From positions 1-37,206 of IMG/VR virus record IMGVR_UViG_2737471853_000011: a stretch of 37,206 bases of DNA. One strand, 5' to 3'. The translations under genes and the position numbers were made by a program. How positions within the stretch are numbered: the stretch's first letter is position 1; each line of letters starts with the position of its first letter. Positions 1,062 through 1,886 of the stretch are shown here, piece after piece. The notes beneath the pieces are model-generated. The model made no database searches. It was not told where the DNA came from and worked only from the letters and a program-made list of their open reading frames with translations. This DNA is from a virus. Lineage: Duplodnaviria; Heunggongvirae; Uroviricota; Caudoviricetes.

Positions 1062-1886
1062 TTGCAATGTTCATTAATATACGTCTCACAAATAATTCAC
1101 AGATATTGCAAAATGGATATTACTGAGTTTCCTTCTGGAGTAATTGAACACCTTGGCTGGTATGTATACCGATTGATTGATCCTAGGGACGGAAGCACCT
1201 TCTATGTAGGGAAAGGCAAAGGTAACCGCGTATTTGCCCATATGCGCGGTGAAGTGGCAGCGGCTGATGATGACGAGTTACTGAGCAACAAGCTAAAGCA
1301 AATCAGAGAAATAAGATTAGCGGGACTTGAAGTTATCCATGTCATCCATCGACATGGAATGACTGATGAAAAGACGGCGTACGAAGTTGAAGCAGCACTT
1401 ATTGATGCCTACCCTGGGTTAACGAATATCATGAATGGTGCTGGCAGCAATGAATTCGGCGCCGCGCATGTCAAAGAGTTGATAGCAACATATCAACCCG
1501 AAACCATAACATTTCATCATAAAGCATTAATGATTTCCGTTAACAGAAGTGCAAAGGATTCAGAGCTTTATGATGCGGTTCGATTTAGCTGGCGCATTAA
1601 TGTCTCTCGCGCCAGCCAAGCAGAAGTTATTCTTGCTACTGTAAGGGGAATCGTTCGAGGGGTTTTCATTGCTGATAAATGGCTCAAATCAACACGTGAA
1701 AATTTCCCTACGATGAAATACTGGGACGAGGATCCTGACTTTGAGGCAACACAAAGTTCTCGCTATGGTTTTGAAGGTCGAGAAGCCCCACCTGAAATAG
1801 CAAATCTTTATCTTGGAAAAAAAATACCAGATGAATTAAGAAAAAAAGGAGCTATGTCCCCGGTCCGTTACTCACCTAATTTTTGA
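1062..1886 (+). CDS. GIY-YIG nuclease-domain protein with uncharacterised C-terminal half (start may be ATG 1113)
   Basis: N-terminus has [27 protein letters not shown] followed by a conserved Glu (YEVEAAL), the GIY-YIG pattern; moderately AT-rich. Confidence 0.65.

Follow-up and report, generated by a model that had tools for sequence, protein, structure and literature searches.

Which function does the gene serve that lies next to the tail-fibre invertase of an Escherichia coli prophage, and by which route did it come to lie there? In a stretch of viral DNA of 37,206 nucleotides (IMG/VR record IMGVR_UViG_2737471853_000011; hereafter the window), a first-pass annotation had placed an open reading frame (ORF) at 1062-1886 in this position and regarded it as a candidate defence or exclusion nuclease, or else a homing endonuclease, possibly carried on an inserted cassette. 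The ORF itself proved to be real and uninterrupted on the + strand, whereas its start had to be revised. As a start codon, the TTG at 1062 is simply the earliest candidate in the frame; the true start is most likely the ATG at 1113. This assignment follows from four lines of evidence: RefSeq has the identical protein WP_000355479.1 begin at 1113, with matching coordinates in a genome of 100% identity, alignments to the PADLOC and PHROG profiles start at the first residue of the 257-aa form, the crystallised proteins begin at the same residue, and the published numbering of Y17, Y19, Y31 and Y127 fits this start only. The corrected coding sequence thus spans 1113..1886 (+ strand) and comprises 257 aa plus the stop codon. 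Its GC content of 43%, compared with 51% for the window, fits acquired cargo.

Profile and structure comparisons assigned the 257-aa protein to a known family. It matched the PADLOC model PDLC04031 PD-T4-3 with E 2.2e-140 (residues 1-256 on profile positions 1-255/256) and PHROG 5356 with E 2.9e-143; NCBIfam returned no match, and RefSeq lists the protein as "LEM-3-like GIY-YIG domain-containing protein" or "hypothetical protein". With respect to crystal structures, 254 of the 257 residues (99%) are identical to PDB 9U75_A/9U8D, the CMoRE enzyme of E. coli O157:H7 (E 1e-172), and the APEC O1 enzyme (9U7U/9U7Z) was matched with E 1e-150. The three differences from 9U75 (E55, Q169, and N197) are conservative and natural, E55 and N197 being common to the APEC O1 enzyme 9U7U and Q169 being present in other natural E. 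coli copies. The earlier defence-nuclease reading is therefore supported, and we consider it very probable that the window carries an intact CMoRE (PD-T4-3) gene, i.e., a type IV restriction enzyme directed against T-even phages. Its identity, its intact ORF, the full set of key residues, and its genomic context are directly visible in the window.

On the level of domains, the N-terminal GIY-YIG pattern noticed in the first-pass annotation was recovered as Pfam LEM-3_GIY-YIG, which passes the curated cut-off with E 2.4e-14 and spans aa 28-110 of the corrected protein, with the generic Pfam GIY-YIG model staying sub-threshold at 13.7 bits versus a cut-off of 22.6. Both were the only families found in a Pfam scan taken to E values up to 1, which returned nothing in aa 111-257; the description of the C-terminal ~150 aa as unassigned thus holds at the level of domain libraries. 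The N-terminal GIY-YIG domain is located at 1113..1442 (+ strand), its residue roles being described for CMoRE (PMC12923530), and the C-terminal modification-sensing domain covers approximately aa 125-257 (1485..1883, + strand; boundary approximate), with 128/130 residues of the C-terminal 130 aa identical to the crystallised domain. All published key residues are found in the window protein, namely Y17, Y19, Y31, R39, D52-E55, R80, V92, E93, L96, and Y127. An alignment of five sequences, including two jumbo-phage homologues, showed the motif tyrosines Y17, Y19, and Y31 to be invariant, and likewise R39, E93, and N105 are present and invariant in the E. coli and jumbo-phage proteins. The catalytic Arg and Glu are called conserved, without residue numbers, in the accessible part of the CMoRE paper (PMC12923530); judging from the canonical GIY-YIG spacing, R39 and E93 are the likely candidates. 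The autoinhibitory acidic loop covering the active site is encoded by codons 52-55 (1266..1277, + strand; sequence checked) and reads D52-D53-D54-E55 as in the APEC O1 enzyme, compared with DDDD in the O157:H7 enzyme.

The family is already well described, and the identity of the gene is in itself not new, CMoRE having been both characterised and crystallised. PD-T4-3 was first found in strain ECOR68 by Vassallo et al. 2022 (PMC9519451), in the main text of which it is unnamed and its locus undescribed, and it was renamed CMoRE by Liu et al., Nat Commun 2026 (PMC12923530; PDB 9U75, 9U8D, 9U7U, 9U7Z). According to the latter study, CMoRE is a single-protein type IV restriction enzyme assembling as a tetramer. 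It confers ~10^5-fold protection against T2, T4, and T6, with the cells growing normally at MOI>1 without collapse of the culture and with T4 DNA being depleted while host DNA reads are unchanged. The enzyme binds and cleaves DNA containing 5-hydroxymethylcytosine (5hmC) or glucosyl-5hmC, not C- or 5mC-DNA, at the site CN11/N9G, leaving 2-nt 3' overhangs. Y17, Y19, and Y31 form a GIYxY-YIG motif, active-site mutants have lost their function, and replacement of the four acidic loop residues of the O157:H7 enzyme by alanine led to cleavage of ordinary DNA, self-cleavage, and toxicity. [quoted passage not shown] Two further studies, independent of this one, are in agreement. A homologue of 48% identity, PD-T4-3Capno, degrades T4 DNA and Mu DNA, not T4-GT7 DNA, and was protective without inducer (PMC12366544). 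In the native host NILS69, deletion of PD-T4-3 rendered the strain sensitive to Tevenvirinae phages (bioRxiv 10.1101/2024.12.20.629700).

Borrowed from this near-identical enzyme, the mechanism of the window protein would proceed as follows. A tetramer built as a dimer of dimers would bind DNA carrying 5hmC or glucosyl-5hmC through its C-terminal domains, whereby two modified cytosines ~21 bp apart (site CN11/N9G) would be required. The N-terminal GIY-YIG domains would then cut both strands and leave 2-nt 3' overhangs, and the acidic loop D52-E55 over the active site would exclude ordinary and 5mC-containing host DNA. As an outcome, incoming T-even genomes would be destroyed directly and non-abortively, so that the lysogen and the prophage would both be protected.

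Among known enzymes, the window protein shares with the CMoRE/PD-T4-3 proteins of O157:H7 and APEC O1 the same length, the GIYxY-YIG motif, the acidic loop, the dimer-interface residues, Y127, and the single-gene organization. The PvuRts1I and MspJI families resemble CMoRE in combining a modified-base reader with a nuclease and in cutting at a fixed distance from two symmetric modified cytosines, and PvuRts1I likewise accepts 5hmC and glucosyl-5hmC (PMC12923530). In both families, however, the nuclease and reader folds differ from those of CMoRE, for whose sensing domain the authors state neither a sequence nor a structural homologue (PMC12923530). I-TevI, the Seg proteins, and the N-terminal domain of UvrC, the last being the closest structure to the CMoRE GIY-YIG domain (PMC12923530), share the GIY-YIG fold and the Tyr/Arg/Glu/Asn catalytic set. 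CMoRE differs from homing GIY-YIG enzymes and UvrC by an additional tyrosine in the motif (GIYxY-YIG), by an acidic insertion of 15 residues, and by its dependence on modification.

Concerning the genomic context, the gene lies, as described in the first-pass annotation, beyond the invertase at the tail end of the prophage. The neighbouring gene (1944..2498, - strand) encodes a pinE-type serine invertase of 184 aa, the switch for tail-fibre inversion (Resolvase E 1.1e-51, HTH_7 E 5.5e-13, pinE in RefSeq), which is 92% identical to pinE of the K-12 prophage e14 and is arranged convergently with the CMoRE gene. Beyond pinE follow the invertible tail-fibre segment, a gene for a YmfQ-family protein, and baseplate J, tail, head, and terminase genes, i.e., the prophage is of the e14/SfV type. 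The invertible segment (window 2499-3920) is oriented oppositely in the two copies of this locus within the chromosome record of strain Combat11I9 (L001 14234-15624 versus L003 7413-8933), both states of the Pin switch thus being captured. On the other side of CMoRE, an 83-aa ORF (536-787, - strand; no family match) and a FlxA-like gene (1-333, - strand; Pfam FlxA E 1.2e-14, PHROG 11044) lie, like CMoRE itself, inside the prophage at the end beyond the invertase. With regard to a possible partner, the neighbours of CMoRE are the convergent pinE and non-coding DNA, and they vary between genomes; the locus is without a partner gene and represents a single-gene system.

The extent of the prophage was derived from its attachment repeats. 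ARAGORN located a tRNA-Thr gene (CGU anticodon) at 35763-35838, and its 3' part is covered by a direct repeat of 56 bp without mismatches, found at window 35753-35808 and again ~506-561 nt to the left of window position 1 in E. coli strain Combat11I9 (L001 11148-11203). This left copy lies beyond the window, its position being taken from Combat11I9, which is 100% identical over the first 3 kb and 99.6% over the first 15.5 kb, with mosaic head and early regions in which this identity is not maintained throughout. The paired repeats indicate a prophage of ~36 kb integrated at tRNA-Thr. The integration site adjoins proA, and we take it to be thrW, which in K-12 serves CP4-6. At each of its two ends, the circular chromosome record of Combat11I9 holds a copy of the locus, and the many frameshifted host genes in the far-end copy suggest an untrimmed assembly overlap. 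Elsewhere in the window, two + strand ORFs at 24175-24996 (273 aa) and 25021-25503 (160 aa) oppose the genes around them, between the Q antiterminator and the lysis genes. PADLOC found no match for either; the first has no Pfam match and the second only sub-threshold ones (DUF4064, E1-E2_ATPase). In the Combat11I9 prophage, a KAP-family NTPase gene occupies their place, and the region 24175-25503 may be a second accessory slot.

The position next to pinE is a place of variable content. In K-12 e14, the place directly past pinE is taken by mcrA, and the pin stop codon is the exact point at which homology with the window breaks off, making the comparison with mcrA and e14 that had been drawn from the sequence alone an apt one. 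McrA (EcoKMcrA) is likewise a single-protein, type IV modification-dependent enzyme occupying the same slot, and it is an unrelated protein with an HNH nuclease domain (Pfam HNH E 3.5e-15, PADLOC mREase_IV); a Pfam scan found no HNH domain in the window protein, whereas K-12 McrA scanned alike has one. McrA targets methylated or hydroxymethylated cytosine and is not known to act on glucosylated 5hmC. The arrangement also differs, mcrA being co-oriented with pinE and the CMoRE gene of the window convergent with it. Across e14-like prophages (L002, L005-L008, L010), the interval from pin to the prophage end hosts different cargo by strain: McrA, a DUF6602 PD-DExK, NucC-like nuclease, a HEPN RiboL-PSP-like protein whose Pfam match (E 7.8e-06) with 26.4 bits falls slightly short of the cut-off of 28.4, proteins without family match (279 and 350 aa), a beta-flower protein, or nothing. 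In its composition the interval looks like a defence hotspot.

A ~36-nt element at the pinE stop codon, with the window sequence CCGCAGCACGATCTTGCATACGACGTGCTACGGTT, provides a key to the borders of the CMoRE cassette. The flanking repeats reported in the first-pass annotation were confirmed as families of 26-32 nt at 499-530, 889-914, and 1909-1940. The copy that abuts the pinE stop codon (copy C, 1909..1943), 22 nt after the CMoRE stop, folds into a strong hairpin, the pin-sense strand (-29.3 kcal/mol, z -4.8) giving a more stable structure than the + strand (-21.3 kcal/mol, z -3.3). This hairpin is kept at the pin stop codon in the loci of eight relatives (L003-L010) whatever their cargo and is missing in K-12 e14. 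In its simplest reading, copy C probably serves the convergent CMoRE and pinE genes jointly as a 3'-end hairpin or terminator. A promoter/terminator scan yielded no promoter and no canonical terminator for the CMoRE gene, the 13-nt loop of the hairpin exceeding the loop limit of 3-8 of the terminator scan. The second copy (copy B, 888..925) forms the left border of the CMoRE cassette and matches copy C with 88% identity along 26 nt. The third one (copy A, 499..535) is degenerate, with 65-75% identity to the other two and a fold no better than shuffled sequence, and is followed by a short pin-3'-like stretch, weakly matching the hairpin and pin end of L004.

Comparison with prophages lacking CMoRE disclosed an empty site. 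The ~200-nt segment 728..924 is 80-87% identical to L005:3306-3501, L006:3315-3501, and L007:3307-3501, where it abuts the pin stop codon, each match ending at 3501, the first base of the pinE coding sequence and end of its stop codon. A capsid-protein fragment annotated by RefSeq at ~822-908 overlaps this segment. In the window and in strain ET490, ~983 bp (926-1908) containing CMoRE lie in between, accompanied by a duplication of the hairpin, so that copy B, at the right end of the 728-924 segment, reads as the displaced original pin-proximal hairpin. The check for presence or absence of the gene in related prophages that had been proposed along with the cassette idea thus allowed empty and filled sites beside pin to be compared cleanly, the insert being framed by two hairpin copies, and the outcome supports this idea. 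Flanking hairpin copies were not found around the cargo of L005-L007 at up to 8 mismatches; consequently, hairpin-flanked insertion is seen for the CMoRE cassette only, as one event. Three hairpin copies and the pin-3'-like remnant suggest repeated rearrangement at this point. We hold it to be a speculative and rather unlikely idea that the hairpin at the pinE stop codon is, beyond a terminator, a recurrent recombination or capture point at which defence cassettes are taken up and stacked by e14/SfV-like prophages. Under such a reading, the copies at 499-535, 888-925, and 1909-1943 would stand for three successive captures, with CMoRE as the innermost cassette. Pin itself was also considered as mediator of cassette capture and is probably not involved, the hairpin being, as we assume, unlike the gix/hix crossover sites.

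On the species level, the CMoRE gene occurs, with 95-100% nucleotide identity, in 838 (~15%) of the 5426 complete E. coli genomes, and in 823 of the 838 a single place covers no less than 80% of it. The gene and pinE are contiguous in 565 of the 838 genomes; elsewhere it can lie directly beside tail-fibre genes without an invertase, near a retron Ec48 effector. Eight small E. coli records labelled as plasmids (H146-H153; 18-68 kb, non-mobilizable) also carry the gene with 97-99.6% identity, and, judging from their size and their lack of mobility genes, they may be phage-plasmids, or else prophage circles that were excised or misassembled. Outside of E. coli, full-length homologues of 38-46% identity are encoded by virulent jumbo phages, e.g., Serratia phage Moabite (L012:2501-3265) and Pseudomonas phage OBP (L013:2492-3253), and further ones by Klebsiella phage N1M2 and other Serratia jumbo phages. 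The jumbo-phage homologues keep Y17, Y19, Y31, R39, E93, N105, and Y127 without having the acidic autoinhibitory loop; they may act against competing phages with modified DNA, rather than in homing.

Two other functions for a nuclease in this position have to be weighed against restriction. A free-standing GIY-YIG homing endonuclease of the Seg/I-TevI kind would have spread into the site beside pin by cleaving alleles that lack the cassette, repair then copying it in. The catalytic domain, the precise ~983-bp insertion with empty and filled sites in related prophages, a weak match to PHROG 314 "homing endonuclease" (E 0.0022), and the deposition of jumbo-phage homologues as "putative homing nuclease" would all be in line with such a lifestyle; the latter labels are, however, annotations by depositors and not tests, and the insert-less and filled alleles beside pin exist in an accessory slot with many unrelated cargo genes. 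Against homing speaks the C-terminal half, in which Pfam, contrary to GIY-YIG homing endonucleases, detected no NUMOD, IENR1, HTH, or other homing-type DNA-binding module, and which in the crystallised enzymes binds 5hm-dCTP (PMC12923530). Moreover, wild-type CMoRE neither binds nor cuts unmodified DNA (PMC12923530), so that an E. coli prophage target could not be cut, and an intron or intein context was seen in none of the relatives examined. Precisely a homing module together with such a context had been named at the outset as the outcome that would speak for homing, and on this basis we reject a homing endonuclease as highly improbable. The second function, an abortive-infection toxin which upon sensing infection turns its nuclease on host DNA and kills the cell, is suggested by the latent self-directed activity of the acidic-loop mutant, which cuts ordinary DNA and is toxic (PMC12923530). 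Since CMoRE cells stay normal at MOI>1 with unchanged host reads and depleted T4 DNA, and since cleavage of ordinary DNA is triggered by neither 5hmC-DNA nor 5hm-dCTP (PMC12923530), this function is hardly credible, leaving direct restriction of modified phage DNA as the preferred reading.

A further explanation grants the identity as CMoRE and considers the gene as intact yet silent or too weakly expressed in the lysogen, being a passenger and not a working system. It draws on the upstream part of the cassette (926..1112, + strand), presumed to contain the native promoter and 5' UTR. Similarity to the O157:H7 upstream region begins at window 916, with 179/198 positions identical over 916-1112, and the resulting ~10% divergence separates the window from the strongly active O157:H7 allele; a scan of 926-1112 found no consensus sigma-70 promoter. 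A weak candidate was recognized by eye, with a putative -35 element TTGTGA (1052-1057) and a -10 element TAATAT (1075-1080) at a 17-nt spacer and 8/12 matches. The published CMoRE clones used "native promoters" of unstated extent, and the APEC O1 allele, when driven by its own promoter, defended only weakly (PMC12923530). In NILS69, most predicted systems are natively inactive; PD-T4-3, however, is one of only two active ones (bioRxiv 10.1101/2024.12.20.629700), and PD-T4-3Capno protected without inducer (PMC12366544). In addition, the intact ORF and its 95-100% nucleotide identity across the 838 genomes argue for purifying selection on the CMoRE gene. We regard a silent copy as improbable and infer that the window copy of CMoRE is probably expressed and active.

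For annotation, the protein so far listed as hypothetical or LEM-3-like can be renamed CMoRE/PD-T4-3 and described as a type IV restriction enzyme directed at T-even phages, an assignment with relevance for the prediction of host range in phage therapy. What is new here, and only mildly so, is the slot beside pin with its hairpin-flanked cargo, which adds modest context to the CMoRE paper (PMC12923530), in the accessible part of whose text the word "prophage" does not occur. If recurrent capture at the hairpin were true, the slot would be an exchangeable defence hotspot for McrA, CMoRE, the DUF6602 PD-DExK nuclease, or the HEPN protein. The clean borders of the CMoRE cassette provide a tractable locus for the question of how prophages swap their defence cargo, the slot past the tail-fibre invertase exchanging unrelated nucleases, including two different type IV enzymes.
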